Positions 28,696 through 53,415 of a stretch of DNA of 64,000 nucleotides are shown one piece after another. This stretch comes from Ignavibacteriota bacterium (GTDB lineage Bacteria; Bacteroidota; Ignavibacteria; UBA10030): contig PLMK01000042.1 in assembly GCA_003142475.1 (NCBI GenBank), positions 131,586 through 195,585 of the forward strand, written 5' to 3'. The number at the start of each line of letters is the position of its first letter. Within the stretch, counting starts at the first letter, position 1. The position numbers were made by a program, and so were the translations under genes. Below the pieces are notes generated by a model, which did not search any database, had not been told where the DNA came from, and worked only from the letters and a program-made list of their open reading frames with translations.

Positions 28696-29315
28696 AGGAA
28701 TCCTATTGTAAAAAGTATGTTGAAGAGGATTTTAAGGCTCCAATCTAAAGAAGTAACAAGAAATAGATTTTCTGTTGAATAATGTATGAGAATTCCTCGT
28801 AATGCAATAGTCACGAGTGTACCTGCATAATAGATCACAAAGGAAAGAAGAATCCAAAAATAGCTATGGTTCATTAAGGGCTGAATTCGATTACCTATAA
28901 CAACAAACAATGTATATCCAGCTCCAAGAGTAAGGAGAACTTGTGAAGCACTTGCCGTAACTGAATATAATCCATTCATAGGTTCAAATGTAAGTTTTGC
29001 AATAACCCAAAACAGTATATAAAGTAGCATCAACGCCTGAAAAAATCTTTTCATCCGACGCGACTCTTGCCAAATGGAAATGATTGACATAATAAACATG
29101 TATTCTATGAGATAATATACGTGTACAAGTCCTAGAGTAAATTGATATCCTCTAGCGAACCATACAAAATAAATATCTGCAGCAAATGCAACTATGAGAT
29201 AATAAAAGAGGATTTTTATTCCATCATGTAAAATCCTTATTTTAAAAATTCCAGCTCCAATCGGTAAAATCGGACTGAAGTGCGATATATAAGCAAAGAA
29301 AGGATATTGATTCAT
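28674..29315 (-). CDS. Polytopic membrane protein (5-6 TM), possibly the detached sensor module of the downstream histidine kinase
   Basis: Hydrophobic throughout; 3' end overlaps the HK start by 22 nt in another frame. Confidence 0.5.
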   Translation of the reverse strand: MNQYPFFAYISHFSPILPIGAGIFKIRILHDGIKILFYYLIVAFAADIYFVWFARGYQFTLGLVHVYYLIEYMFIMSIISIWQESRRMKRFFQALMLLYILFWVIAKLTFEPMNGLYSVTASASQVLLTLGAGYTLFVVIGNRIQPLMNHSYFWILLSFVIYYAGTLVTIALRGILIHYSTENLFLVTSLDWSLKILFNILFTIGFLCPQTRT

Positions 29316-29506
29316 CTACTAAGTTGTTTCTAAAATAAGTACTATAAGTTTTATAAGTAACTAATCAGAATGTCGTTAAATCAATAAATATACACGTTTG
29401 TTGCGGCATCTGAATTATAATGCAGTAGAGTTGCCTGGTGTACAACTCCTCCACATTATTTTATTTTAAGATAGTAAATGAATTATGCTCTTGCAATCTA
29501 TGCATG

Positions 29507-29878
29507 CTAATTACCACAAAAGGGAGGACATATGATTGTCGGACCAGCTATGAGATTTGATACCATATCTCTACCATGTTTATCAACTCCAACAATCACG
29601 AATCCAAATTTGCCGTCTGCACGCTTGCCATAATATGTGCGAACTCCAACACAGCCGGGTTGCTTCATAGTTTTTTCTACAACATCCTTTCCAATATAGT
29701 GAGCAAGCATTGCATCCGATGGCACAGAGATGCGGTGTATGTTTGTCAAGGCGGTTGCATCCTGTATTGATATTGATTGTCCTGCATTCATAGATTTATC
29801 GGTTGATGGATAGATGATGAGTACGATTGCGCTTAGTGCGAAAATCGAGATAATGGTAAGAGTTCTCTTTATAGACAT
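29507..29878 (-). CDS. Small secreted hypothetical protein (123 aa)
   Basis: N-terminal signal peptide/TM anchor; no recognisable family. Confidence 0.4.
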   Translation of the reverse strand: MSIKRTLTIISIFALSAIVLIIYPSTDKSMNAGQSISIQDATALTNIHRISVPSDAMLAHYIGKDVVEKTMKQPGCVGVRTYYGKRADGKFGFVIVGVDKHGRDMVSNLIAGPTIICPPFCGN

Positions 29879-30744
29879 TTATATTCTCCTTAAGAATAAA
29901 ATATATTTTGTGTGACTGCCAATTGACAGGATATCTTGGAACGTGAAATTCGAAAAGCAGTGCGGCAGGGAGCGACTTGGAGGGGAATTACAATTCTCAA
30001 ACATCGTGGTCCTTTCAATATAGTTTAAGATATGTGACTAAAGAAAACTATGTGTCAATTTTTCATCCAGCATGTTTCTATTAGTCTCCCTTGACTAATA
30101 TTTAAATTTAACATCCTCATAGTCCCGACAAACAAGGATGAGGTTTTCTATCATTACTGCCGCCTATATGCCAGACTGAAGCGGCACCCCGCTAAATTGG
30201 AACGCGTTATTTGATGCAAAAAGCAATATACATTCTGGCCTTGTATAACAATAGTGAAATCAACAATTATTTCTGCCGTTATTTACATATTAAGCTACAC
30301 CATTACGTACTAATTGTCTGTCGTATTTTAACCAATTGTTTGTAGCGATTTTGGTGCAAGTATTTGTCGTAAAAAACAGATAATTTGATAACATTAATAT
30401 GTTCAAGCATGAAAAATGGAATTTTATCGTTCCAATTCCTTGTTTTCTACCATATAATATGGTTTTTCGAGGTATTTATAAACAAATTCTCACTCTTTAA
30501 TTCCGTCCGATCAGCAATATGCATAATGAAATTACGGCAAAGTATTGGTGAAAATACGACATGCAGAATACTTGCTTTTCTATACGCGTTCAATGTATAT
30601 TGGGTTGCAGGGTTTTCGCACTCATAAATATGAGTTGTGAAAAATTTTAAAAGTTTTTTGTACATCAATATTATTTAAGTATACATATTAGATTCCAAAC
30701 CTGTTGGTGGCGTTCAATATGCATATGCATAGAAATCAGAGCAG

Positions 30745-31062
30745 ATGCTGAAAACTATGAACGAGGAGGATAAAAAAATGTCTACTGAAATAATTCTTCA
30801 TGAAGCAACCGCAGTCTTACAAGCTGCACTTCACCATGCATCAGAACTCTCAGAGGTTGGAGTAACTGATGACGAGTTTCTTCTTATGCGTGTTCTCATT
30901 ACGAGCGTCGCTGCGCATTCCTATACTTCGCTGGGAAAGAATATTGACTTACATGACGAAGTGCACAAACTTAAAAATTTGAAGGATGTCATTGTCAGAA
31001 CGGCGGAAAAGCGGTTTGGCCAAACAAACAAGGTGTTGGATGAATTCAGATATGTCGCATAG
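30745..31062 (+). CDS. Hypothetical protein (about 95-105 aa) in the AT-rich accessory region
   Basis: ORF only; helical composition; no homology recognised. Confidence 0.3.
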   Translation: MLKTMNEEDKKMSTEIILHEATAVLQAALHHASELSEVGVTDDEFLLMRVLITSVAAHSYTSLGKNIDLHDEVHKLKNLKDVIVRTAEKRFGQTNKVLDEFRYVA

Positions 31063-31520
31063 CAAAAATCGATTGGCTGAAATATTATGCATATAAACCT
31101 CAACCGCATCACGAATACTTAGAACTCTTGTTGCATGAGAAGCCGACTCCTGTACTCGTTTGTTTCGACAACACGAATATCATATTAACAAATCCAATTA
31201 ACTTGAATGATGTAAGTCACAGATACTGTGCACTGCGTAACCCTTATAAAAGATTACAGCTGATTTGGTCACTTCTCTCCTTCCCAACACGATATCAAAT
31301 TTTATCGGATATCCTCCCATCAAACAAGTTTATCCGACTATTGACACTAGTCAGAATGCGAAGCGGGCTGGCAGCCAGGCGGAATGGGAACGGAGTAATG
31401 TGTGGAGCACTTCTAAATTCCAATTCTATCTGCATGTAATATGGTTTTGCGCAACATCAGCAAGTTATTCATAAGACTCATTACTTCTGCATTTCACAAT
31501 TTTCATCACAGGAGAATGCT

Positions 31521-32321: not shown

Positions 32322-32588
32322 CAATGGCTTTGTAATTCCTTGGCATCAAGAACCCAACTCCGATAGATTTGTAATCTGAGATGTCTAGTGCGTATGCTGT
32401 TACGCCCTGTTTGAATAATCTGCTCTCTCCTTTAAAAGTTTGTATATCTCAAGTCACTTTTGTAGATTAGAACCAGTTCTACTATGATATGTACACGGGG
32501 AGTAGCGTGTGCATATTTACCGACGTAAAAGTTTTCCAAACATACAATGATATTAATGGGCTGAAAAGTGGAGTCTATCTAATCAGTA

Positions 32589-32600
32589 GTTAGGCGGCAT
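32589..32600. repeat. Isolated attC R' core GTTAGGCGGCAT immediately upstream of the first cassette-like ORF
   Basis: 12-mer identical to 42034-42045 and reverse-complementary to the left end (ATGCCGCCTAAC) of the element at 32907. Confidence 0.5.
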
Positions 32601-32917
32601 TGAATCATATGAATACTATCTCCCATATCAACAATTGTCATAAATGTAACGAGACAAAATCTATTCGTTCGAGTGTATTTCGACAGAACGTAAGCTATTT
32701 ATTTCGGCGGCAAGAAAAGGAGTTTCGAGGATCATTCTGTTTCCGTTGCACCTCAATTCTTTTCTTTAAGTGTACTCTTATTACTCTCATTGGAACTTGG
32801 TGGGGTGTTATTGGTGCACTTATCGGACCCGTTTACATTATTCAGAACATTTATTTCTATTTAAAAAGTGTTTTAAGTTTTCTCTTTAGCAATGAAGAAA
32901 CAACTAATGCCGCCTAA
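32600..32917 (+). CDS. Cassette-like ORF: small Cys-rich (CxxC...CxxC) protein with a C-terminal TM segment
   Basis: Starts (TTG 32600 or ATG 32609) right after the GTTAGGC core; stop codon TAA 32915-32917 lies inside GCCTAAC of the following attC-like element. Confidence 0.4.
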   Translation: MNHMNTISHINNCHKCNETKSIRSSVFRQNVSYLFRRQEKEFRGSFCFRCTSILFFKCTLITLIGTWWGVIGALIGPVYIIQNIYFYLKSVLSFLFSNEETTNAA

Positions 32918-33071
32918 CCAGGCGCTCAAGCAGACGGAATGAGCTCACTACAAAATTCATGGCGATCAGAGGTTTAGTACAATTTGAAAGTTATCAGCGC
33001 CGCAGTCCCGCTGTAAGGGATCCTCGATTCGACTCTTAGTCGAATCGGGACTTAGCCGCCATCCGGTAGGT
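32912..33071. repeat. attC-like recombination site A (about 160 bp imperfect inverted repeat: GCCTAAC...GGCGCTCAAG // CTTAGCCGCC...GGTAGGT)
   Basis: Left end GCCTAAC (inverse core), right end GGTAGGT (core-like); ends are mutual imperfect reverse complements; internal hairpins. Confidence 0.6.
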
Positions 33072-33112
33072 TTTATTCATATATTTTAAATAGGGCTATC
33101 AAGGAATCCAAA

Positions 33113-33601
33113 ATGCAATTCGTTTGTATCAATTCAGACCATGATTTATCAAGCGTAGTCAAGGTTCTCAACGAAGCGCATGGGACGATTGCAAAGGAAT
33201 TTGGATTTACAAAAGAAAATAATCCAACAAACAGTGCTTTTATTGATGAGCATGCTTTACGGGCACAATTAAATAAAGGTATAGAATTATATCAATTAAC
33301 AGTAAATGATAAAGTTATCGGTTGCATAGCAATTGAAAAATCGGCAAAAGAAATTGACACTTATTATATTGAGAAGGTTTCTATAATTCCAGAGTATAGA
33401 CATCAAGGATATGGAATTAAAATAATGGAATATGCTGCCGAAAAGATCAAGGCACAAAACGGTAAATGGATTTCAATAGCTTTAATTGATTCAAATACCA
33501 GACTTAAAAATTGGTATTCAAAGCAAGGATTTAAAGAAACAGGAACAAGGGATTTTCCTCATTTGCCATTTAGAGTTTGCTTTATGAAAAAAGAAGTATA
33601 A
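33113..33601 (+). CDS. Cassette-like ORF: GNAT family acetyltransferase
   Basis: GNAT motif-A region HQGYGIKIM; flanked on both sides by attC-like elements. Confidence 0.8.
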   Translation: MQFVCINSDHDLSSVVKVLNEAHGTIAKEFGFTKENNPTNSAFIDEHALRAQLNKGIELYQLTVNDKVIGCIAIEKSAKEIDTYYIEKVSIIPEYRHQGYGIKIMEYAAEKIKAQNGKWISIALIDSNTRLKNWYSKQGFKETGTRDFPHLPFRVCFMKKEV

Positions 33602-33603
33602 AA

Positions 33604-33769
33604 CCTGACTAGGTGCTCAAGTCCCGCTGTCAATATAAATTCTTATATAGCGGGATGTCCAAGATGGCGCTGCAAGCGACAGCGCCTATGGCGCACACTC
33701 GGTTTGTCCAGAAGAAAGAATCACACGAAGAGTGATACAATATTTTTCAAGGAGTGCCATTTCGTTGGG
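33604..33769. repeat. attC-like recombination site B (divergent copy of the same family)
   Basis: Starts 2 nt after the GNAT stop; shares GGTGCTCAAG, GGCGC...GCGCC and TGTCCAGAAGAAAGAATCACACGAAGAGTGATAC modules with copies C-E; right end GTTGGGC (33763-33769) fits GTTRRRY. Confidence 0.5.
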
Positions 33770-33897
33770 CAACCACATAGGAGAGCACAAGATGAAAAAG
33801 GTGATGTATTATTTCTTTTGGATTGGAATTTGATCCCTGGGAATAGATCTAAGAACACTTAGATTACTATATTTCTATACTCAAATAGGATAGCATT

Positions 33898-34602
33898 ATG
33901 AAAATAACAACATTCTATTGCATCATTTTGTGTTTGTATTCGTTTGCGCTGAAAGCACAGGATAGTACAAATAATACAAAGATCGATACATTGCTTTTAT
34001 ATCAAAAGAAAATGTTATCGCAGCAGGAAAAAATATATAACGAAATAGTTCGCTATAAAGAACCGCTCGAGAATAAAAAATTTGGTATTGAATTCAATCC
34101 CGCATATTTTTTAGTAAGCAGCTCACGTTCATATACGGTTTTAAGCGGAGGATTTTCACTTTTTGATGTGGATAGACATGCAGAAATTGCATTTCCGATA
34201 TTTTATCAAAATGGAACAGACGAAAACTCTGGAAATCATGAGTTAACACTTTGGAACCAGGATATAGTTTATAGGAAATTCTTGGGACAACACCAAGACG
34301 GATTTTATATTGAGGGGGGATTGCGTTATACGCATATCAGAGGAGAAGAAGGCGGTGATCTATCACTATTTGGGCTCAGCCTGTTTCCATCATCATCCGC
34401 ACCAATTATAACAACAGATAAAGTCGGAGCGATGTTCGGTATCGGATATAGATATTTTTCAACTTCAGGTATTTATTGGGGAATAAGTTTTGTATGGGGA
34501 TCATATTTTTCTGCTGATAAGCGTACAATACAAGGAATCATAGGTGATGATACGAAAACAATAATAGACTTTGAGATATTAAAATTTGGTTATGCATTCT
34601 AG
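33898..34602 (+). CDS. Outer-membrane beta-barrel protein (about 8-10 strands), family unknown
   Basis: Signal peptide; alternating aromatic beta pattern; C-terminal ...FGYAF. Confidence 0.5.
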   Translation: MKITTFYCIILCLYSFALKAQDSTNNTKIDTLLLYQKKMLSQQEKIYNEIVRYKEPLENKKFGIEFNPAYFLVSSSRSYTVLSGGFSLFDVDRHAEIAFPIFYQNGTDENSGNHELTLWNQDIVYRKFLGQHQDGFYIEGGLRYTHIRGEEGGDLSLFGLSLFPSSSAPIITTDKVGAMFGIGYRYFSTSGIYWGISFVWGSYFSADKRTIQGIIGDDTKTIIDFEILKFGYAF

Positions 34603-34664
34603 CTGCGTTAAACTGATCGTTCCCTAATGTGGCTGTGTTTTAAATCCATGAGAGAATTCTCTAT

Positions 34665-37156: not shown

Positions 37157-37984
37157 ATGCAAACTATGACACCAAATTACATTGATTCTCATGCACATCT
37201 TTTCTTTACCGATTACGCAAATGAACTTACAGCAGTATTATCCCGGGCAAAAGAAGCTGGAGTAAGCGTTATCATCGTTCCTGGAACGGATGTGAAGTCC
37301 AGCCGAGAGGCTATCCAGCTTGCTAATCAGCATGAAAATATTTTTGCATGCGTTGGTATCCATCCGCACGAGGCATTAAAAGCGGGTCACCAAGATTTGG
37401 CGGAGATTGAAAAGCTCTGCGAACATCCGAAAGTAGTTGCTATCGGGGAAATTGGTTTGGATTATCATTATGATTTCTCGCCGCGCGAATTACAGCAAAA
37501 ATATTTTGTTGAACAGATGGAAATTGCAGTACGAAAACACTTGCCGGTTGTTTTGCACATGCGCGAATCAACTGAAGATGTTTTTTCTATCGTAGAAAGG
37601 ACTGTAAATGTAAACCCAAATTGGAAAAAGAACAGTACAGAACCGATGCGCGGTGTATTCCATTGTTTTCCAGGAACAGCGGACCAAGCTGCCTATGTGC
37701 ATGAACTTGGTTTTTGCGTTTCATTTCCCGGTATTGTTACATTTAAGAAATCAAATAGTATCGAAGTTGTGAAGCAGATTGGAATTCAGAATATTTTACT
37801 CGAAACAGATTCTCCCTATATGACGCCAGTCCCTTTGCGTGGAAAAAGGAATGAGCCGGCAAACATAGTGTTGATCGGACGTAAGATTGCAGAAGCGCTT
37901 AACATTTCCGAAGAAGAAGTAGCGCGCATTACTACAGAGAATGCTATGCGTTTGTTTAGTCCACATCAGTTTAGAAAAGAATGA
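37157..37984 (+). CDS. tatD: TatD family metal-dependent DNase/hydrolase
   Basis: IDSHAHL N-terminal motif, EIGLDYHY, conserved His/Asp pattern. Confidence 0.85.
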   Translation: MQTMTPNYIDSHAHLFFTDYANELTAVLSRAKEAGVSVIIVPGTDVKSSREAIQLANQHENIFACVGIHPHEALKAGHQDLAEIEKLCEHPKVVAIGEIGLDYHYDFSPRELQQKYFVEQMEIAVRKHLPVVLHMRESTEDVFSIVERTVNVNPNWKKNSTEPMRGVFHCFPGTADQAAYVHELGFCVSFPGIVTFKKSNSIEVVKQIGIQNILLETDSPYMTPVPLRGKRNEPANIVLIGRKIAEALNISEEEVARITTENAMRLFSPHQFRKE

Positions 37985-38001
37985 AAAATGACAATGAACT
38001 A

Positions 38002-38913
38002 CTACTTTGTTTTCCATTCTTGATAAGTAGAACGATGTTCCTGATCGTAATTGGATAGTGTTTCATATACACTGCGATCAGGATAAGCTTGGAAGGCTTC
38101 AGCAATTTCTCTGTATTTTGCATCAAAAAATTGTTTCACAACTACACTGGAAGAGTTTTGACGCGTGCGAATATCATTAATTGACGCAATCGCTGTGAGC
38201 ATATTACCAAGTGCTTTTTGCTTTTCCGTAGTGAGCAAGTCGATGCCGTCAAAATGATAATTGTTGAAAGCGGTACGGAAGGCATTATACTTTACGCTGG
38301 AGAGTTCGTCTGTAATGCCAAACTTACTGTAGCCGGAAGAAGATTGCTGCCAATCTTTTGCTGCTGCTGAGTTGGCTGCCAATTGTACTGTGTTTAACGC
38401 TTTTTGAAAACAGGGAGACCCGGACATAGGGATGTACGTCTCCAGATCATATCCAATTATGAGATACGCATAGAAATCAAGAAATCCTGTTAATGGATCA
38501 AAAACCATTTCATCATGGTTCATCCGTTGATTAGGTGTGTAGGTGAAGTTCCAACTATTATCCATAATTCGAAGAACAAGTGTTGAGCGGTCAGATTTAT
38601 CATTGCCGATATAAATTGGACGCTGACTTAGTACGACAGCCTGTACCTGATAGCGGTTGTCGCTTGTTGCTGTTGTAAATGAAATATCCAAGCTGCATTG
38701 GATTTTTTCTCCGTCAAGATCTTCGCTTGAGAAGCGTGTATTGTTCATATAACGTTCAATATCTTGACTAAAGCTACGCAGATAACCAAGCTGAGCAGAT
38801 TGGATGGATTCCGTATGGATCGTGACAGAGCAATTGAGTTCTTGAGAAACAAGAAACGGAGTTCCAATTAATAGGAGAATGAAAAACAGGATTGCTACTT
38901 TTACTTTTTTCAT
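38002..38913 (-). CDS. Secreted hypothetical protein (DUF4835-like)
   Basis: Signal peptide at internal Met MKKVKVAILFFILLLIG; no catalytic motifs. Confidence 0.45.
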   Translation of the reverse strand: MKKVKVAILFFILLLIGTPFLVSQELNCSVTIHTESIQSAQLGYLRSFSQDIERYMNNTRFSSEDLDGEKIQCSLDISFTTATSDNRYQVQAVVLSQRPIYIGNDKSDRSTLVLRIMDNSWNFTYTPNQRMNHDEMVFDPLTGFLDFYAYLIIGYDLETYIPMSGSPCFQKALNTVQLAANSAAAKDWQQSSSGYSKFGITDELSSVKYNAFRTAFNNYHFDGIDLLTTEKQKALGNMLTAIASINDIRTRQNSSSVVVKQFFDAKYREIAEAFQAYPDRSVYETLSNYDQEHRSTYQEWKTK

Positions 38914-39796: not shown

Positions 39797-41815
39797 ATGC
39801 GTGCTTTTTTATTTATCTTATTCAGCATTGCCATTGCATCTCTTGCCAGCGCGCAAGAACAGTTAATATCAGATACATCAGATGTTTGGGAAGACAGTTA
39901 TTGGGAAAAGATATTGGAAACTGCCGTACAATCCGATGAAAATTCTACCATTGCCGAAGAAACAACTCAGCTTGAAGACGATCCACTTAATCTCAATACA
40001 GCTTCAGTAGAAGAACTACATCGAATTCCCGCAATATCAAATCTTATTGTTTCCAGGATTATTGATAGACGTAAACGCGAACGATTTACTTCTATAGATG
40101 AACTATTAGAGATCGAAGGAATGACACCGGAATTGCTTTCCTTCATTCGCAGGTTTGTGAGAATTGGAAGGATGAAGAAGGGTCCCAGCCTCAGTGCATC
40201 TTTTCTCAGCAGAACATCAACAGAAATTGAAGAGCGGCAAGGATTTATCAATGGCGCGTATCCCGGCACGCCGATAAAAATACTAAATCGATTTCATCTT
40301 TCAATCGGTAAGAATAAATCACCTTTATCATCCTCGGTTTCTGAATTGGAAGTTGGTGTGCTGACTGAAAAAGATCCCGGTGAACGAAGCATTACAAATT
40401 TCTCAACCTATTTCGCTGGCTTTTCCATCCCGTCAATCTCAACGCATTTTATAATTGGAGATTATCAAATGGAAGCCGCAGAGGGATTGATCTTCTGGAG
40501 TTCATCAGCGTTCGGAAAAGGAAGTGACGTTATTACGCCAGTAAGGAAAAATGGCGGCGGAATTCACCCGTACCTTTCATCTGATGAGAATTCTTTCTTC
40601 CGCGGTATCAGTGCTTCGATTGATTTAGACAAATTGCAGGTCCAAGTTATGTATTCCAACAAAACACTTAATGCAACAATAGATTCGCTCGGAAATATCT
40701 CGTCTCTATACAGCAGTGGATTATTCCGTACCGAAAGTGAACAACGCAAACAGAACTCATCACGAGAGACACTAATCGGATGCCGTGCAGTTACATATCT
40801 TTTAGATGGATTGAAGATTGGAGGTACCTGTTATCGTACTCGATTTGTGAATCCGTTCATGCTCATAGGCAATAATGGCGAAAGTGCATCTGAATTATGG
40901 ATGGAAGGAATGGATCTTTCTTTCACAAGCAAAAATATAGATGTGTTTTCAGAATGCGCTATTGATCGCGCAAACGCACTTGCTGTCATTGCAGGAATAA
41001 CTTATGAACCTGCTGCAATGCTTGCCTTGACAATTACTGCCAGGGATTATCCTTCTGCATTCCAAAGCATCCACGGAAATGCTTTTGGTGAGTTATCCGG
41101 ACAAGTGCAAAATGAGAGTGGTGTGTATGTCGGAATTCGAACGCAGCCCATGAAAGGATTGTGCATATCAACGTACTACGATCAGTTTGAACATTCTCAG
41201 CCGACGTATTTGATTCCAACGCCATCGCATGGCAACGATTTCCTTGCACTTGCAGAATATAACCTAACGGAACAATTTGAAATTGCATTTCGGTTCAAGA
41301 GAAAAGATTCGCCGTCTGCAATTTATGAAAATGATTTATACACAAGAATAGTTCAGCAGACAATTCCGAGAGTCCAGCACAATTATAGGCTGACAGGTGA
41401 ATTCGCATCGTCTCCATCGTTACGTTTATCAAGCAGAGTCGAATGGGTGACAGTTGACTACGGCGGAATACAGAGTGCAGAACAGGGGATGCTGATGTCT
41501 CAAGAAATTAAATGGAATTTATTTTATTCGCTGACAGCACAAGCACGACTTGCTATCTTTGAGACGGACTCCTACGATTCCGCAATTTACGAATTTGAAG
41601 ATGAAGTCCCTGGGGCGTACTCAAATCCCGCTCTCTATGGACGCGGCATGCGCTGGTATTGTATTTTGCGTTATCAGGTCTTTTCAAAAATGTATGTTGC
41701 TGCGAAGTATGCACAAACGGTTAAAGAAGGCGTTAAGTCAATAGGCACCGGCAATGATGAAATTAGTGGAGACAGCCAAAGCATTGTAAGCATACAATTA
41801 GAGGTTCGATTCTGA
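39797..41815 (+). CDS. Large secreted protein with ComEA-like helix-hairpin-helix DNA-binding region and C-terminal beta-rich (probable outer-membrane) domain
   Basis: Signal peptide; HhH motif LNLNTASVEELHRIPAISNLIVSRIIDRR; C-terminal ...QLEVRF. Confidence 0.55.
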   Translation: MRAFLFILFSIAIASLASAQEQLISDTSDVWEDSYWEKILETAVQSDENSTIAEETTQLEDDPLNLNTASVEELHRIPAISNLIVSRIIDRRKRERFTSIDELLEIEGMTPELLSFIRRFVRIGRMKKGPSLSASFLSRTSTEIEERQGFINGAYPGTPIKILNRFHLSIGKNKSPLSSSVSELEVGVLTEKDPGERSITNFSTYFAGFSIPSISTHFIIGDYQMEAAEGLIFWSSSAFGKGSDVITPVRKNGGGIHPYLSSDENSFFRGISASIDLDKLQVQVMYSNKTLNATIDSLGNISSLYSSGLFRTESEQRKQNSSRETLIGCRAVTYLLDGLKIGGTCYRTRFVNPFMLIGNNGESASELWMEGMDLSFTSKNIDVFSECAIDRANALAVIAGITYEPAAMLALTITARDYPSAFQSIHGNAFGELSGQVQNESGVYVGIRTQPMKGLCISTYYDQFEHSQPTYLIPTPSHGNDFLALAEYNLTEQFEIAFRFKRKDSPSAIYENDLYTRIVQQTIPRVQHNYRLTGEFASSPSLRLSSRVEWVTVDYGGIQSAEQGMLMSQEIKWNLFYSLTAQARLAIFETDSYDSAIYEFEDEVPGAYSNPALYGRGMRWYCILRYQVFSKMYVAAKYAQTVKEGVKSIGTGNDEISGDSQSIVSIQLEVRF

Positions 41816-42018
41816 CGCCTTGTGATAGCTTTTTTATTAGTCGTTCTTTTTTTTATCTTGATACAAAAGATCAATAAATGTGATTGATTGACATTTCGGG
41901 GAATTGCAGATAATGATTTTAATCGTCGTTTTTCTTCAAAGTACTTTGGTTCTTAATAATAAACTTTTCAGTATGAACTTGTTTCGTCATCTACATTTTG
42001 ATAATATTCAGCATAGTG

Positions 42019-42045
42019 GCTTAGCCGCCATCCGTTAGGCGGCAT
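42019..42045. repeat. Right half (L'-R') of an attC-like site: CTTAGCCGCCATCCGTTAGGCGGCAT; left half not found
   Basis: Near-identical to the right end of element A (33049-33071); contains consensus core GTTAGGC at 42034-42040; sits 38 bp upstream of the first cassette ORF. Confidence 0.5.
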
Positions 42046-42082
42046 TTTCTATGACATTGTGTAGAATTATGGGAGATTTGAG

Positions 42083-42451
42083 ATGCCCGACGTGAAGTTT
42101 GAAGATCATGGTAATAAAAAAATACTTCTCATAGATTTTTCAAATGCCAAAGACAGTCAAGGTATTGTTGATACAGCAGAAGAAGTCATGCGGCTTGTTC
42201 GCTCGATCAATCAGCAACGGTCAATTCGTGGAATGCTTGATCTTTCTGGTACACCCTTGAATAAAGTCGTCAGAGAGACTATGAGAAAAATGTCTAAGAA
42301 CAATGGACCATATATGAAATTAGTTGCTTTTGTTGGGCTTGGCATCCTTTTATCTCCTTTGTTCAAGGTACTGTTATTTGTGAGCGGGAAATCAAATCAC
42401 AGAGTGTTCAGTACAAGACACGATGCATTCGATTGGTTAGTCGGGAACTAA
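42083..42451 (+). CDS. Cassette-like ORF: hypothetical protein (122 aa)
   Basis: Own RBS (GGGAG); followed 14 bp later by attC-like element C. Confidence 0.45.
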   Translation: MPDVKFEDHGNKKILLIDFSNAKDSQGIVDTAEEVMRLVRSINQQRSIRGMLDLSGTPLNKVVRETMRKMSKNNGPYMKLVAFVGLGILLSPLFKVLLFVSGKSNHRVFSTRHDAFDWLVGN

Positions 42452-42465
42452 AAAATAGAAATGCC

Positions 42466-42665
42466 GCCTACCCAGGCGCTCAAGTGGCGCCGGAAGCGCT
42501 ATGGCGCCTAAAGCGCTCATTCGGCTTATCCAAAAGAATGAATCACGCGAAGCGTGATACTAACATTATTTAAAAATGGTGAATGAATTTGGTTCGTTTT
42601 GTGTATATTGTGCGCCAAAGGCGCAAAAGTTATCAGCGTGGCAGCTTAGCGCCCGTCCGATAGGC
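42466..42665. repeat. attC-like recombination site C (200 bp)
   Basis: Left GCCTACC-CAGGCGCTCAAG, right CTTAGCGCCCGTCC-GATAGGC; contains a perfect ATCACGCGAAGCGTGAT hairpin; next ORF starts 8 bp downstream. Confidence 0.6.
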
Positions 42666-42672
42666 AGCTATT

Positions 42673-43080
42673 ATGAAAACACAAATGACAAAGCAGATTA
42701 TCTACAATTTTGTTGAGGCAATCAACGAACATAACGTTGACAAAATCTGTTCGCTCATGACAGACGATCATAAATTCATTGATTCTCAGGGCAACGAAGC
42801 TGTAGGTAAAGAGCAAATGAGGGCAGGATGGATTGGATACTTTCAATTGTTTCCCGATTATAAAGTCGAAATTACAGAATTGTTTTTTAATGGAAACACT
42901 GCTGCAGTGTTTGGTTTTGCAGGCGGCACATTTCAAGGATTGAGTGATAAGAAGGAAAATTATTGGTATCTGCCTGCTTCGTGGAAAGCGATTACCAAGG
43001 ATGGAAAAATTCATTTGTGGCAAGTTTATGCTGATTCAAAAATTCCTTATGACATTATCAATGCAAGCAAAACACAATAG
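42673..43080 (+). CDS. Cassette-like ORF: SnoaL/NTF2-like (ketosteroid isomerase-fold) protein
   Basis: SnoaL-like pattern (IDSQGNEAVGKEQMRAGWIGYF...); stop TAG 43078-43080 abuts attC-like element D. Confidence 0.65.
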   Translation: MKTQMTKQIIYNFVEAINEHNVDKICSLMTDDHKFIDSQGNEAVGKEQMRAGWIGYFQLFPDYKVEITELFFNGNTAAVFGFAGGTFQGLSDKKENYWYLPASWKAITKDGKIHLWQVYADSKIPYDIINASKTQ

Positions 43081-43082
43081 CT

Positions 43083-43230
43083 GCCTACTCAGGCGCTCAC
43101 TCGGCTTGTCCAAAAGAATGAATCACGCGAAGCGTGATACTAATATTATTTAAGAATGGTGAATGAATTTGGTTCGTTATCAAAATATTGATAGTTATCA
43201 GCGCCGCAACTTAGCGCCCGTACGTTAGGC
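43083..43230. repeat. attC-like recombination site D (148 bp; canonical GTTAGGC core at 43224-43230)
   Basis: Left GCCTACT-CAGGCGCTCAC, right TTAGCGCCCGTAC-GTTAGGC; same ATCACGCGAAGCGTGAT hairpin. Confidence 0.65.
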
Positions 43231-43268
43231 AGCAAAACGTTCTTCAACAAATACAGGAGGATAATCCA

Positions 43269-43625
43269 ATGGGTGCTTTTACTCTTCTTTCGATGATACC
43301 GTGGGATACAATCTTCAAATACAGTCCGATTATTGTTGAAGCTGGCCAAAAGATTTTCAACAGTGTCAACAAATATTTCGGGAATACTTTGAAAGAAAGC
43401 GGCAAACCCAAAAAGGCTTCATTAGAACAATTAGATAAAAGAATAAAACTCTTAGAACAAAATGAACTTGAACAAGCGGATCTGATTGAAAAAATTGCTG
43501 TTCAGATAAACGAACTATCTATCGCCGCCAAGATTATTTCAAATAGAACATTGCTTGCACTTTCTATTTCATCTTTGTCGTTGGTTATCTCACTTGTTTT
43601 ACTTGTGATAAGAGTAGTAAGATAA
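43269..43625 (+). CDS. Cassette-like ORF: hypothetical tail-anchored membrane protein (118 aa)
   Basis: Strong RBS AGGAGG; C-terminal TM helix; stop TAA 43623-43625 followed by attC-like element E. Confidence 0.4.
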   Translation: MGAFTLLSMIPWDTIFKYSPIIVEAGQKIFNSVNKYFGNTLKESGKPKKASLEQLDKRIKLLEQNELEQADLIEKIAVQINELSIAAKIISNRTLLALSISSLSLVISLVLLVIRVVR

Positions 43626-43635
43626 TCGTTGTGCT

Positions 43636-43835
43636 GCCTATCCAGGTACTCCAGCTCGGCTTGTCCAGAAGAATGAATCACGCGAAGCGTGATACTAACA
43701 TTATTTAAAAATAGTGAATGAATTTGGTTCGTTATCAAAATATTGAAAGTTATCAGTGCGTCCGTTCCACATTTCAGGTGCAATGCAATCGCTTAGCGTT
43801 AAGAACGCAACAGACTTTGCACCTGTCCATTAGGC
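43636..43835. repeat. attC-like recombination site E (200 bp)
   Basis: Left GCCTATC-CAGG, conserved core with ATCACGCGAAGCGTGAT hairpin, right ATTAGGC; an extra GGTGCAA...TTGCACC hairpin is inserted. Confidence 0.55.
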
Positions 43836-43868
43836 AACCATGAGGAATATTTTTTTAGGAGCTCTAAA

Positions 43869-44243
43869 ATGTTAACAACACTACTCTTATTCGGCGGACT
43901 TTATTGTTTCGCATTTTCAGTATTTCATATTCTTTTTTGGAAGATCTTTCGTTGGCGTCAGGATTTGCACCGACTTTCACCAACGAATCGTGCTATCATG
44001 CAGATTCTTAACATGCGATTGATCTATATTTTTGTGTTTTTTGGTGTCATATCAATTGTCTTTCAGAACGAACTTCTGTTCACGGCATTTGGTAGATTCG
44101 TTATCATTGTTATTGCGGTGTTCTGGTTCATGCGAGCAATTGAACAGGTCATGTTCTTTGGTATCAAGAATTATGTTTCATTCGCATTATTTATTGTATT
44201 CCTTTTAGGTGGTGGACTCTATGCGTTGCTATTAATTGCATAA
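43869..44243 (+). CDS. Cassette-like ORF: 4-TM membrane protein (124 aa)
   Basis: RBS AGGAG; hydrophobic; no downstream attC-like site (array interrupted by transposase remnant). Confidence 0.45.
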   Translation: MLTTLLLFGGLYCFAFSVFHILFWKIFRWRQDLHRLSPTNRAIMQILNMRLIYIFVFFGVISIVFQNELLFTAFGRFVIIVIAVFWFMRAIEQVMFFGIKNYVSFALFIVFLLGGGLYALLLIA

Positions 44244-44354
44244 TAGAGTATGCTCGACTAACCGGGTGTTCTACAAAGTGGTTTGGCAAAGCCATCGCTT
44301 GGCATAGAGCGCTATGGTGTCGAAGGATCACATTTCGAACGCTAAAATCTTACT

Positions 44355-44576
44355 ATGAGAATGAACATGCTACGGCTTACCCGGCTAACCCTTAGTTTTA
44401 GTAAAAAGTTAGAGAAACACAAAGCCGCTATTGTATTACATTTCTTTCATTATAACTTTATGCGTATCCATCAAACGCTTAGAGTAACACCGGCAATGCA
44501 AGCATGTGTATCAAATCACATTGGGAACTGGCAGGAATTCTTAGGAATCGCAAAAACAGCAAGAAAGGCGGCATAA
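44355..44576 (+). pseudogene. C-terminal remnant of a DDE transposase (IS1/IS1595-like), 5'-truncated
   Basis: HFFHYNFMRIHQTLRVTPAMQACVSNHIGNW resembles the YNFxRxHxxL...TPAM...W tail of DDE transposases; no N-terminal catalytic region upstream. Confidence 0.5.
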
Positions 44577-44809
44577 ATAACAACTAATAAATAGAATTGA
44601 CCAGTCCAATAATACAATTGCAGCTTTTTTCCGTCAAAATAGGAGGTATATTGGTGGCATGTTTTTGGTGGTTAAGATATAATAATATTACATAATAGGA
44701 GGGGTAATAATTTGACAAAACTTAATTTTTTATTACCTTGCGTAGCAACCTACCCGCCTCATAAGATGGTAAATGAAACTAAATAATCGTCTCAAACGTT
44801 TTATTTAGT

Positions 44810-45148
44810 ATGGAAAAAGAACAAATGGCAAAAAAACAAATTGCGCTAAGAATAATCGGACAAAAAAAGGGCAGCATCTATATAGCTGTTTGCCTTGAAA
44901 CCGATATCTTTATTCAAGCCTCTTCCGTTCCAGAAATAAAGAGAAAAATGGCAGATGCTCTTACGGCGTACTTTAAATCATTTAGTTCAGACGAGATAGA
45001 ACAAGGTGTCTTTTTTAGAAAAGCACCTATGAAGTATCGGATTGGTTGGCATTTATTGACGGTTGTTAGTTTTACAGGTAAAATTTTAAAATCAATAAAC
45101 TTTAATGCCAATTACGATCCATACTCCCAACATCTAAAGCTTGCCTAA
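44810..45148 (+). CDS. hicB: HicB-like antitoxin (UPF0150 fold)
   Basis: YIAVCLETDIFIQASSVPEIKRKMADALTAYF resembles the HicB N-terminal domain; overlaps the hicA-like gene by 8 nt. Confidence 0.5.
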   Translation: MEKEQMAKKQIALRIIGQKKGSIYIAVCLETDIFIQASSVPEIKRKMADALTAYFKSFSSDEIEQGVFFRKAPMKYRIGWHLLTVVSFTGKILKSINFNANYDPYSQHLKLA

Positions 45149-45437
45149 ACAATATCCGCCCTTAACCCCTGAAGAAGTATTGGCAATTTTAAAAGTGCAG
45201 GGCTTTACATTGGACAATACTGTCGGTAGCCATGCGAACCATGTCGGTTATACCAACGACATTAAAAGAAGAGTCACGGTAGACCTAAAGATCAAAGGCT
45301 ACTCTCCAGAGTTGATGAAAAGCATGATAAGGCAGAGCGGTTTATCCCGTGAAGATTTTTATTGTTCAACCAAAAAAACAGCTGTAAAAATTAATATGAG
45401 AAAAAAGGTTATTAAGACTGAGATTGCCCCAAAGTAA
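45141..45437 (+). CDS. hicA: HicA-family mRNA interferase toxin
   Basis: VLAILKVQGFTLDNTVGSHANHV...IKGYSPELMKSMIRQSGL matches the HicA/YcfA signature (GSHxxx). Confidence 0.6.
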   Translation: MPKQYPPLTPEEVLAILKVQGFTLDNTVGSHANHVGYTNDIKRRVTVDLKIKGYSPELMKSMIRQSGLSREDFYCSTKKTAVKINMRKKVIKTEIAPK

Positions 45438-50546: not shown

Positions 50547-50782
50547 AAACGGGTGCAGCAGAATTTAATAATGGACTGTAGGAAAAAAATATCTTCCCGA
50601 GAATCGACGCTCATCAAGAAGCAAAGGAAGGATGATCCTCCTCAATTCTGCGACTTTTCTTGCAGGCACGCGGAATTTGCCCAGCCCGATGCAATTGGCG
50701 CATGCAGAAAAGAACTTGCTGTATTTTGTACATTATATAAAAGACACAACAATAAAAACTCCCCTTGTATCGAAAAGAAGAA

Positions 50783-52042
50783 ATGAAAACTGCAAAACAC
50801 GTGTCCCTGCAACTTAATAGAGAATTAAACGATATTGCCGAGCCATATGTAAAGCTCGTTCTTGCCGTTGGACAGCACGATGCTGACTATGTAGATGCTT
50901 ACTACGGCCCACCAGAATGGCAGGCAGAAACAAAAGCTGAAAAACAATCGTTAGACACGATACTGCAAACAGCGCTTCCTCTAAAAACTAAATTAGACAA
51001 ACTCCGCAGCAAGCAGAACGAAGAAATTTTACAGCTTCGCCATCAATACTTGAAGAAACAAATCTCGTCGCTCATTGCCCGCGTTGAAGTATTAGGCGGG
51101 AAGAAACTTTCATTCGATGAAGAAGCAAAGGCATATTATGATGTTGAACCACCGGTGTTTGCGGAAGAGCATTTCAAAAAACTTGTTGCAGAATTGGAAA
51201 CGATTGTACCGGGCAAGGGACCAATTCCCGAACGCATCGAAAATTTTCGCGAACAATTTACTATTACTCCGGACAAGTTAGATAAAGTATTTAGTGCCGC
51301 AATTTTCGAATGCCGTCAACGCGCAAAGAAGCACATCATCCTGCCGGAGAATGAAACATTCCGGTTGGAATACGTGCATAACAAAGCGTGGAGCGGCTAT
51401 AATTGGTATAAAGGGAATAACGAAAGTCTCATTCAGATTAACACAGACTTGCCGATTTTTATGGAACGCGCCATTGATCTTGCCGCACACGAAGGATATC
51501 CGGGGCATCATGTGTACAATTGTTTATTAGAGACAGCATTTGCACGTAAATTTGGATGGGTGGAGTTCACTGTATATCCTCTCTTCAGCTCGCAGTCGTT
51601 GATAGCAGAAGGGACCGCCAATTTTGGTATTGAAGTTGCGTTCCCGGGAAAAGAACGAATGGAATTTGAACGCGAGAGACTCTTCCCGCTTGCGGGGTTA
51701 GATAAAAGTCAGGCGGAAAAATATTCCAGGGTTCAGGAGCTTGCCGCAAAACTCAGTTATGCCGGCAACGAAGCCGCTCGAAAGTATCTCAACGGAGAAA
51801 TCTCGCGCGATGAGGCCGCTCAATGGCTCGTTCAATATGCTCTTATGTCGCCGGAACGCGCGCAGCAGCGCACACGTTTTTTCGATCAGTACCGCAGTTA
51901 CGTCATCAACTACAATCTCGGTTTGGATTTAGTACGGCAATACATCGAACGACGCGGCGGAACGGAAGACAAACCGGAAAAACGCTGGGAAGAATTCACT
52001 CGCCTCCTTGCATCACCTCGTTTGCCTTCGGGATTACTTTAG
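50783..52042 (+). CDS. HEGYPGHH-motif protein (DUF885-like putative metallo-hydrolase), paralog 1, no signal peptide
   Basis: About 75-90% identical over long stretches to the next gene; AAHEGYPGHHVYN motif; ATG at 50783 preferred over TTG 50765. Confidence 0.45.
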   Translation: MKTAKHVSLQLNRELNDIAEPYVKLVLAVGQHDADYVDAYYGPPEWQAETKAEKQSLDTILQTALPLKTKLDKLRSKQNEEILQLRHQYLKKQISSLIARVEVLGGKKLSFDEEAKAYYDVEPPVFAEEHFKKLVAELETIVPGKGPIPERIENFREQFTITPDKLDKVFSAAIFECRQRAKKHIILPENETFRLEYVHNKAWSGYNWYKGNNESLIQINTDLPIFMERAIDLAAHEGYPGHHVYNCLLETAFARKFGWVEFTVYPLFSSQSLIAEGTANFGIEVAFPGKERMEFERERLFPLAGLDKSQAEKYSRVQELAAKLSYAGNEAARKYLNGEISRDEAAQWLVQYALMSPERAQQRTRFFDQYRSYVINYNLGLDLVRQYIERRGGTEDKPEKRWEEFTRLLASPRLPSGLL

Positions 52043-52086
52043 ATAGTTATATTACTAGGATTTTTTTATAACATTGGGAGAAGAGA

Positions 52087-53415
52087 ATGAGACCACAACG
52101 ACTATTCATTTTAACTGTGATTTTTTTCATCGTTGCAAGTATAGGGTACAGCAAGGAAATTAATAATGTAAGGTTATATCCCGACCTTAACTCAAGACTG
52201 AATCAAATTGCTAAATCATACGTTAAACTCGTTCTTGCTGTCGGACAATACGATTCTAATTACGTCGATGCTTTTTATGGTCCCAAGGAATGGCTAACGG
52301 AAGCACAATCAGCAAAGAAGTCACTTGATGCTATCAGGCAGAAGGCGCTTCCTCTTGCAGCAGAGCTGGATTCGCTCGACAGCACCCACGAAGAAGAAAT
52401 ACTACAACTGCGTCATCAGTATTTGAAGAAGCAACTTTCGTCGCTCATCGCTCGTGTTGAGACACTGGGCGGCAAGAAGCTCTCATTCGACGAAGAGGCA
52501 AAAGCATATTACGATGTCGACCCGCCGAGTTTTCCAGAAGAACATTTCAAGAAGCTTATTGCCGAATTAGACACGATAGTCCCCGGCAAGGGATCGATTT
52601 CTGAGCGTGTCGTAAACTACCGTCGACAATTCACCATTATCCCGGATAAAGTTGACACAGTTTTACGTGTTGCTATCCGAGAGTGTCGAATTCGTACAAA
52701 GAAGCACATCAAATTATCAGACGACGAAACTTACCGGCTAGAATATGTTCACAATAAATCATGGGGCGCGTACAATTGGTATAAAGGAAACAACGAAAGC
52801 CTTATTCAAATCAATACCGACATGCCGATGCCCCTTCATTCTGTGATCGACCTTGCTGCTCACGAAGGTTATCCAGGGCATCACGTATACAATAGCTTGC
52901 TTGAAACAAATTTTGCATCTAAGCGCGGCTGGGTAGAATTTACTGTTTATGCACTTTTCAGTCCACAATCGCTCATCGCCGAGGGAACCGCAAACTTCGG
53001 CATTGAAGTCGCATTCCCCGGGAAGGAGCGAATGGAATTCGAGCGCGACGCACTCTTCCCGCTTGCGGGACTGGATAAAAGTCTGGCAGAAAAATATTCG
53101 AAAGTACAGGCTCTTATTGCAAAGCTCAGTTATGCCGAAAATGAGGCCGCACGCCGGTATCTCAATGGTGAAATCTCGGGTGATGAAGCTGCACAATGGC
53201 TTGTCAATTATGCGTTGAGGAGTCCAAAGGAGGCACAGGCGTCGATACGCTTCTTTGACCAGTACCGCAGCTACGTAATCAATTACAATCTTGGGATGGA
53301 TTTAGTCCGGCAGTACATTGAACGCCGCGGCGGAACGGAAGACAATCCGGAAAAACGCTGGGAAGAATTCACGAAACTTATTTCATCGCCGCGCTTACCG
53401 TCAGGATTACTCTAA
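52087..53415 (+). CDS. HEGYPGHH-motif protein (DUF885-like), paralog 2, with signal peptide
   Basis: Signal peptide MRPQRLFILTVIFFIVASIGYS; same motifs as paralog 1. Confidence 0.45.
   Translation: MRPQRLFILTVIFFIVASIGYSKEINNVRLYPDLNSRLNQIAKSYVKLVLAVGQYDSNYVDAFYGPKEWLTEAQSAKKSLDAIRQKALPLAAELDSLDSTHEEEILQLRHQYLKKQLSSLIARVETLGGKKLSFDEEAKAYYDVDPPSFPEEHFKKLIAELDTIVPGKGSISERVVNYRRQFTIIPDKVDTVLRVAIRECRIRTKKHIKLSDDETYRLEYVHNKSWGAYNWYKGNNESLIQINTDMPMPLHSVIDLAAHEGYPGHHVYNSLLETNFASKRGWVEFTVYALFSPQSLIAEGTANFGIEVAFPGKERMEFERDALFPLAGLDKSLAEKYSKVQALIAKLSYAENEAARRYLNGEISGDEAAQWLVNYALRSPKEAQASIRFFDQYRSYVINYNLGMDLVRQYIERRGGTEDNPEKRWEEFTKLISSPRLPSGLL

Follow-up and report, generated by a model that had tools for sequence, protein, structure and literature searches.

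The 64,000-nucleotide (nt) stretch of an Ignavibacteriota genome analysed here (GenBank assembly GCA_003142475.1, contig PLMK01000042.1, positions 131,586 to 195,585 of the forward strand), which we call the window and whose numbering is used throughout, carries at 41948-44243 a row of repeats and small genes that we refer to as cluster 2. It consists of a 5'-truncated attC site, three full attC sites and four co-oriented small open reading frames (ORFs), and lies behind a ComEA-like core gene. The original prediction, made from the sequence alone, had described it as an integron cassette array of the CALIN type (cluster of attC sites without integron integrases). R'' and L'' denote the left boxes of an attC and L' and R' its right boxes; elements C, D and E are measured from the left core (R'') to the right core (R'). 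The features at the locus are the following.

39797-41815, plus strand: ComEA-like HHH_3 gene, 672 aa, PF12836 on record; core gene flanking the array
41948-42040, plus strand: 5'-truncated attC, left edge of the array; keeps inner modules m3 and m4, L' and R' GTTAGGC (42034-42040)
42035-42659, plus strand: cassette K1, bounded by G/TT crossover points; ORF 42083-42451 (122 aa)
42466-42665, plus strand: attC C (200 nt); R'' GCCTACC, R' GATAGGC, both core triplets mutated
42660-43224, plus strand: cassette K2; ORF 42673-43080 (135 aa), SnoaL/NTF2-like
43083-43230, plus strand: attC D (148 nt); R'' GCCTACT mutated, R' GTTAGGC canonical
43225-43829, plus strand: cassette K3; ORF 43269-43625 (118 aa), coiled coil with C-terminal membrane anchor
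43636-43835, plus strand: attC E (200 nt); R'' GCCTATC, R' ATTAGGC, both mutated; L boxes GGTAC/GCACC
43830-44243, plus strand: start of cassette K4; ORF 43869-44243 (124 aa), predicted multi-pass membrane protein

The four ORFs, of 118-135 aa, one per cassette and all on the plus strand, are present as the original prediction had listed them, and the elements have the sizes (148-200 bp), the left cores (GCCTACC, GCCTACT and GCCTATC) and, in D, the canonical GTTAGGC that it had given. Two of its statements need amendment. The orphan L'-R' half at the left edge is real and larger than claimed, being 93 nt (41948-42040) of an attC of about 158 nt. An attC is found at the 3' end of the first three ORFs, as stated, but not at that of the fourth, where half-site hidden Markov models (HMMs) give no match. 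The sites begin at 41948, 42466, 43083 and 43636 with a spacing of 555-625 bp; ORF stops lie 3-15 nt upstream of the left cores and ORF starts 7-42 nt downstream of the right cores.

The truncated site lacks R'', L'' and its first ~60 nt. Its right half is recognised by the right-half HMM (E 3e-7), and 41948-42040 can be aligned with the 3'-terminal ~97 nt of two relatives' 158-nt attCs (loci L020 and L011), the preceding 60 nt being unrelated. The attC sequence is thus entered part-way, 132 nt past the HHH_3 stop codon. With at least two attC sites less than 4 kb apart and no integron integrase nearby, cluster 2 falls within the definition of a CALIN. It is not a complete integron, there being no intI in the window and no attI, as the array starts inside an attC. 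For intI this agrees with the earlier claim: tblastn searches of the whole 64 kb with IntI1 and four Ignavibacteriota IntI proteins gave a best E of about 0.6-3.

Anatomy of the attC sites

In a working integron the bottom strand of attC forms a hairpin in which R'' pairs with R' and L'' with L', leaving an extrahelical G. IntI cuts between A and C of 5'-AAC-3', and cassettes are excised and re-inserted at attI. The bottom-strand AAC that is cleaved is the complement of top-strand GTT (PMC5027507).

Elements C, D and E share 105 nt at 84-94% identity, and an identical 30-mer common to all three is found in 3 copies in the window versus 0 in dinucleotide shuffles. Repeats of this kind might also be read as dispersed repeats between small genes, unrelated to integrons, whether miniature inverted-repeat transposable elements (MITEs) or repetitive extragenic palindromes (REPs), and the ends of the elements bear directly on that reading. 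Compared with the reverse complement of the previous element's R' flank, the 8 nt just outside each R'' agree at 6-7 of 8 positions (mean 6.75), as against a mean of 3.25 for the R' flank of the same element; an example is the right end of the truncated site, GTTAGGCGGCATTTTCTAT, beside the reverse-complemented left end of C, GGTAGGCGGCATTTCTAT. The 8-nt flanks at either end of K1 complement each other at 7 of 8 positions. The same register runs throughout the long cassette arrays of relatives. It arises because the crossover falls inside R' (G/TT), and a MITE would not give it, as here each element end complements the neighbour's end and not its own other end. Moreover, reading of the sequence shows no target-site duplications where the elements end, and all copies belong to co-oriented arrays whose units hold one ORF each. 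Within the window they are confined to two clusters, cluster 2 and a second described below, and show none of the dispersal that the original prediction had named as speaking for a MITE.

The R and L boxes also match those of integrase-linked attC sites. Among 67 distinct sites of the family, including A, C, D and E of the window (A belongs to the second cluster), R-box positions 2-7 are paired in 84-99% and the 6-bp L box in 72-99%. Variants of the L box are compensatory: GGCGCT/AGCGCC (28 sites), GCGGCT/AGCCGC (4), GCAACT/AGTTGC (2) and GGCACT/AGTGCC (1). In 62/67 sites, A, C, D and E among them, a top-strand C is bulged, which corresponds to an extrahelical G of the bottom strand. In the arrangement GGCGCT[C]AAG opposite CTT-AGCGCC, a 6-bp L stem lies between the bulged base and an unpaired spacer; extrahelical bases near L'' and a 6-bp stem have been described for attC sites (PMC5027507). 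The bottom strand of D folds without constraint into the R-box and L-box stems.

Half-site HMMs trained solely on the integrase-linked sites of relatives match in the window only at the two clusters, with E down to 1e-7. The left-half model hits 32906 (E 1e-7), 42460 (5e-4) and 43631 (2e-3), and the right-half model 42014 (3e-7), 43201 (3e-6) and 42636 (5e-6). A search of Rfam, which has no attC family, found no RNA family (whole window at gathering thresholds; 41800-44700 by E-value). A tRNA scan of the window found no tRNA genes, and a tRNA-linked island was thereby ruled out. The array of VCR-like, homogeneous attC sites (VCR, Vibrio cholerae repeat) that had been proposed is therefore supported by register, pairing, integrase-linked homologs, confinement and the lack of intI.

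In relatives the sites of this family measure 54-375 nt. Sizes of attC are usually quoted as 57-141 nt, although the variable regions of chromosomal integron sites can be long and branched (PMC5027507), and the family extends the quoted range. The 54-64-nt sites are little more than R and L boxes and a short hairpin. Long sites carry ordered optional modules, the first being a pre-hairpin stretch and the hairpin GAATCACGCGAAGCGTGATAC, the second an AATGAGC...CATGGCG block, the third CATGAACTTGTTTCGTT and the fourth TTGAAAATTATCAGCGCCGCAG. The first and third are present in C, D and E and the second is absent; the fourth occurs in D and E. Since the hairpin module is missing from the 54-64-nt sites of the same arrays, it represents sequence inserted into attC rather than the element as such. 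The conserved core of about 80 bp noted earlier is accordingly real as shared sequence, but it belongs to the variable terminal structure, where it is inserted optionally, and is not the attC proper. RNAalifold on nine long attCs recovered the R box and the invariant inner hairpin and found no covariation in the variable region, which can exceed 300 nt, and hence no evidence of conserved long-range structure in it.

The 21-nt hairpin GAATCACGCGAAGCGTGATAC, with its GCGAAGC core, also occurs within a separate palindromic element of ~75 nt, TGTCATTCCCAGCCGGAGGCGTAAAATT-GAATCACGCGAAGCGTGATAC-ATTATCAGGCTTCCAGCTGTCGGGAATC, which has no attC R or L boxes in its flanks. This element is found in L001, L002, L007, L012, L015, L017, L018, L021, L025, L030 and L032, and in L012 it lies just downstream of intI. 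Its existence, together with a gene resembling REP-associated tyrosine transposases (RAYTs) beside intI in L038 and L046, is what speaks for dispersed MITE- or REP-type repeats. Against this stand the absence of the hairpin module from the short attCs and the lack of any palindromic element or RAYT gene in the window. Given these and the register of the ends, we regard dispersed repeats as an extremely improbable explanation of cluster 2.

The RAYT-like gene lies between the ComEA-like gene and intI (L038, 12020-12825; L046, 10183-10713). At 69.7 bits against NF047646 the L038 copy stays below the cut-off of 80, and tandem GTAG-type palindromes lie ahead of it; its homolog in L046 is 84% identical and is on record as PF01797 Y1_Tnp. 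A REPtron-like unit thus adjoins the integron platform in these two relatives. We also observe that the antisense hairpin at 42542-42558, 43122-43138 and 43677-43693 (minus strand) is followed by T-rich TCATTCTTTT, which matches a simple intrinsic-terminator consensus.

REPtrons (REP plus RAYT, PMC8266576) share with this family a stable short hairpin in two element contexts and, in two relatives, a RAYT-like gene flanked by GTAG-type palindromes beside intI. They differ in that the hairpin here is inside attC, and a link between hairpin and RAYT is only conjectural. It is a speculative and, in our judgement, unlikely idea that the attC sites of this lineage are no ordinary hairpins and that the modules of their variable region represent a second class of single-strand hairpin element colonising attC, perhaps related to REP/RAYT, or that they give attC a regulatory role. 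If true, the modules would be a new layer of integron biology, for example in antisense termination or control of strand choice. As attCs reach 200 nt in the window and up to 375 nt among relatives, searches built around 57-141 nt could under-call such arrays and may miss part of them.

The integron junction in related genomes

A 21-nt core from the elements was found in 32 loci of a species-representative genome collection. All of these are Ignavibacteriota or "Bacteroidota" metagenome-assembled genomes (MAGs) whose names indicate peat or fen (SPRUCE, fen_), and many are long cassette arrays. A metagenome scan for an attC 20-mer specific to the window gave a single match, in unrelated coding sequence, and is uninformative about further arrays in the genome of the window. 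Four loci encode integrases of TIGR02249, "integron integrase" (L011 453, L012 449, L038 442 and L039 454 bits; cut-off 265 bits). Canonical attC arrays stand beside intI in L011, L038 and L039, whilst L012 has one attC left half at the locus edge. The layout of L011 is classical, with intI divergent from the array, then attI (...GCAGTCTAATCATAG/TTAGGCAGC) and then cassettes with this attC family.

The gene in front of cluster 2 is conserved in these lineages. HHH_3 orthologs are 75-80% identical in conserved synteny, and 60% in the most distant relative (L045). The shared order is DinB (in L038 and L039 only), amidohydrolase, UbiE, TatD, DUF4835, a 288-aa gene and HHH_3. In L038 (GCA_026390575.1), L039 (JGI 3300052918) and L046 (SPRUCE 123 MAG), intI follows the HHH_3 gene directly on the minus strand and is itself followed by plus-strand cassettes; the L046 integrase is a 318-aa tyrosine recombinase with PF13495 and PF00589 on record. 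Neither L040 (75% identity) nor L045 (60%) has an integron after the HHH_3 gene. An integron is thus found at this junction in three of five relatives, and sites C, D and E of the window are homogeneous, as expected of a sedentary integron. Elsewhere in the synteny, a 704-aa HEAT-repeat/peptidyl-prolyl isomerase gene lies between TatD and DUF4835 in L038, L039, L040 and L046; the window (37984-38002) is without it, like the more distant L045, and has 17 nt between TatD and DUF4835.

We propose that cluster 2 is the remnant of a sedentary chromosomal integron that has lost intI and attI and is most likely a frozen, non-recombining CALIN, a reading to which we assign a probability of about 0.85. 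It would be the integron of the HHH_3 junction after loss of both, although the order of events is not provable. Ancestrally the order would have been that of the sister lineages, namely the ComEA-like gene, intI (minus), attI and cassettes (plus), each cassette being one putatively promoterless small ORF with its attC. From this junction intI and attI would have been lost and the first attC cut in half; most of the surviving sites would have gained point mutations in the recombination core and the array become frozen. Expression of the cassettes would then be limited to internal promoters and to transcription running on from the upstream gene, which has the same orientation.

The second cluster bears on how the integron was lost, and comprises the following.

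32572-32598, plus strand: attI-like site opening cluster 1, AGTCTATCTAATCAGTAG/TTAGGCGGC, with no intI adjoining
32600-33770, plus strand: cluster 1, with ORF 32600-32917 (105 aa), attC A (32912-33071; R'' GCCTAAC, R' GGTAGGT), a GNAT ORF (33113-33601) and attC B (33603-33770)

Cluster 1 has the same attC family and cassette register as cluster 2, and opens with an attI-like site instead of an orphan attC half. The attI-like site shares 26/27 nt with the attI that adjoins intI in L039 (blastn E 6e-6, whole window) and also resembles that of L011. The finding of an attI and two cassettes at a non-syntenic place suggests that the platform underwent splitting and partial relocation and not a mere deletion. 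At 32351-32428 on the minus strand, REQIIQTGRNSIRTRHLRLQIYRSWV bears a weak resemblance to the IntI N-terminus (residues 3-31 of the L011 IntI) and sits where, and is oriented as, intI would be expected beside the attI-like site. As a trace of intI (RNSIRTRHLRL..QIYRSWV) it is unproven, with an E of 0.6-3 in the whole window and of 0.004 (26 aa) only in two short excerpts.

Rearrangement in the region also suits a different history, in which the cassettes arrived by IntI secondary-site insertion or by translocation of an array and the ComEA-like neighbourhood is coincidental. CALINs can stem from secondary-site insertion or rearrangement (PMC4889954), the attI-led cluster 1 lies 9.4 kb away at a non-syntenic place, and synteny downstream of the HHH_3 gene is not kept among relatives. 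However, three independent relatives have an integron at the exact junction in the same orientation, and the array starts inside an attC, which fits a breakpoint of deletion or rearrangement and not a GTT junction made by an integrase. We therefore consider such an arrival quite improbable.

Cores, cassettes and stasis

The family core consensus is GCCTAAC/GTTAGGC. Under one paired-site detection rule for relatives and window, both core triplets (R'' ..AAC and R' GTT..) are kept in 58/63 sites of relatives versus 0/4 in the window (Fisher p 1.6e-4, resting on these four sites only). Canonical in the window are R'' of A and R' of B, D and the truncated site; R'' of B, C, D and E and R' of A, C and E are one or two bases off. 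On sequence grounds the window sites read as decayed members of the attC family and not as a different kind of site. The core mutations and the truncated first site argue that most cassettes are no longer excisable.

It may be, however, that an integrase encoded elsewhere in the genome still reshuffles these cassettes in trans. About half of CALINs are in IntI-encoding genomes (PMC4889954), and the related MAG SPRUCE 408 has many dispersed arrays and intI. Moreover, R' GTTAGGC is kept in D and the truncated site, and C and D have intact L boxes and an intact extrahelical base. On the other side, no full site has both core triplets unmutated, and the leftmost site, being without R'' and L'', cannot fold. 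Of the IntI homologs in the protein database, the 120 closest include none on a contig of 812,404 bp (the size of the longest contig with the locus). The array is also invariant across samples: the exact K2 protein is found on at least 24 contigs from several metagenomes with the gene order the same in every place shown, and a 2.8-kb region is 100% identical in 4/5 compared metagenome contigs from different samples and 99.7% identical in the fifth. We think a live array served in trans unlikely, and favour the frozen remnant, in which the cassette ORFs are nonetheless intact.

The cassette genes are of mixed kinds. K2 matches PF12680 SnoaL_2 (E 7e-15). The K1 ORF itself has no Pfam match; its family comprises ~190 clusters, and 12/35 sampled members match PF11964 SpoIIAA-like, so that the K1 protein may be remotely SpoIIAA/STAS-like. 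A sequence search of the PDB with K1 gave no match, and its single-sequence structure prediction was unusable (pLDDT, the predicted local distance difference test score, of 51). K3 has an 82%-identical homolog in an unrelated cassette array of another MAG (L004), with dN/dS (nonsynonymous over synonymous divergence) of 0.085/0.248. There the homology begins at the R' box, and R''-L'' is similar whilst the inner attC region is different. The family of K4 numbers only 21 protein clusters in the database. PADLOC on nine proteins (the two clusters and an adjacent gene pair, described below) gave chance-level matches only and no defence system.

The window's cassette proteins have no homolog in the relatives' loci examined, where core genes are 60-88% identical; the outcome that the original prediction had named as counting against it, cassette ORFs that are conserved core genes in relatives, is thus not what is seen. 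Judged from the sequences, absence of cassette homologs amid conserved core genes is the turnover expected of cassettes. One metagenome contig (L035) shows 12 differences from the window in 17.6 kb, nine of them within 46 nt (43484-43529) of the K3 ORF. This patch looks like recombination from a divergent K3 allele, or a strain-mixed assembly.

Several observations weigh against a remnant of the junction integron. An attI with two cassettes lies 9.4 kb upstream of cluster 2, left of the syntenic DinB and without an integrase. The intI search covered 64 kb of the genome, and an intI elsewhere is possible. One-base R'' changes may be tolerated by the integrase, a point that bears on a decay statistic drawn from so few sites. 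In unconstrained DNA folds of A-E on both strands, z-scores are modest (-2 to -4) and the fold is canonical only in D; in A, B, C and E local hairpins win and no canonical hairpin forms. No attC is recognisable downstream of K4, and K4 homologs occur in mixed contexts, partly non-cassette, without this attC family. These contexts are therefore uninformative on the attC that K4 may have lost.

Neighbouring features and related systems

The right edge of the array and its surroundings hold the following further features.

44256-44271, plus strand: possible degenerate R''-L'' remnant of the K4 attC, GACTAACCGGGTGTTC, by eye, weak
44355-44576, plus strand: possible 3' remnant of an IS1-family transposase gene, weak and doubtful
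44810-45437, plus strand: pair of overlapping genes (112 and 98 aa), for a putative HicA-like toxin and its upstream partner

The string at 44256-44271 is undetected by the HMMs and out of register with the right end of E. ORF 44355-44576 has a marginal match to DDE_Tnp_IS1 (E 0.12) at the C-terminal end of the profile, and truncation of the right edge of the array by an insertion sequence is plausible. The gene pair separates the array from the next core gene, which encodes an AMP-binding enzyme and starts at 45607. Its HicA_toxin match (E 2e-5, 25 bits) is under the cut-off of 27, and the half-site HMMs find no attC near it.

Around cluster 1, a 234-aa ORF (33898-34602) is followed at 34622-34635 by CCCTAATGTGGCTG, which by eye resembles the reverse complement of the right flank of attC B, CCTATGTGGTTG; the gene may represent a third cluster 1 cassette that has lost its attC from R'' on. 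L046 has an ORF of the same size, but the two are not homologous. Just upstream of cluster 1 and a C1-peptidase gene, 29300-31500 is low in G+C (0.35 versus about 0.42 elsewhere) with few short ORFs, and may be foreign or decaying DNA. Adjacent paralogs at 50765-53415 (425 and 442 aa), seen as direct repeats 73-82% identical and 1373 nt apart (families D1, D2 and D4 of a repeat scan), are a tandem gene duplication unrelated to the array.

Cluster 2 is a known type of element, a CALIN or degraded integron. It resembles described CALINs (Cury et al. 2016, PMC4889954; Neron et al. 2022, PMC9024848) in its attC cluster, in co-oriented cassettes with functions yet to be assigned and in having no intI in 64 kb. 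It differs from them in that degradation is documented by sister genomes and not presumed, in that most sites are core-mutated, and in having two sites of 200 nt. With the superintegron of Vibrio cholerae and its VCRs it shares a fixed chromosomal place, lineage-specific similar attC sites with a long branched variable structure, cassettes of unknown function and a toxin-antitoxin-like pair beside the array. Unlike the superintegron, it is from Ignavibacteriota, its family reaches attC sizes of 54-375 nt via ordered optional modules, and it has apparently lost its integrase and has four cassettes only. Integrons are on record for Ignavibacteriae and Chlorobi (PMC9024848). The integrons of that Bacteroidetes/Chlorobi group (PMC9024848) are alike at the phylum level, the relatives here carrying TIGR02249 integrases and cassette arrays. 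Whereas those surveys give counts only, the attC family, attI and ComEA-like locus are described here from sequences.

The decay of an integron appears unusually well documented at this locus. Integrons capture and shuffle genes, and CALINs are common. Of the latter, 95% have no recognisable intI pseudogene nearby (PMC4889954), and their origin is usually guessed. Here the comparison gives a before-and-after series, in which sister lineages keep intI, attI and cassettes and the lineage of the window appears integrase-less, its cores mutating and its ORFs intact. Knowledge of the integron mechanism is unchanged by this; what the locus would provide is a worked example of integron decay and of the domestication of cassettes into the chromosome.

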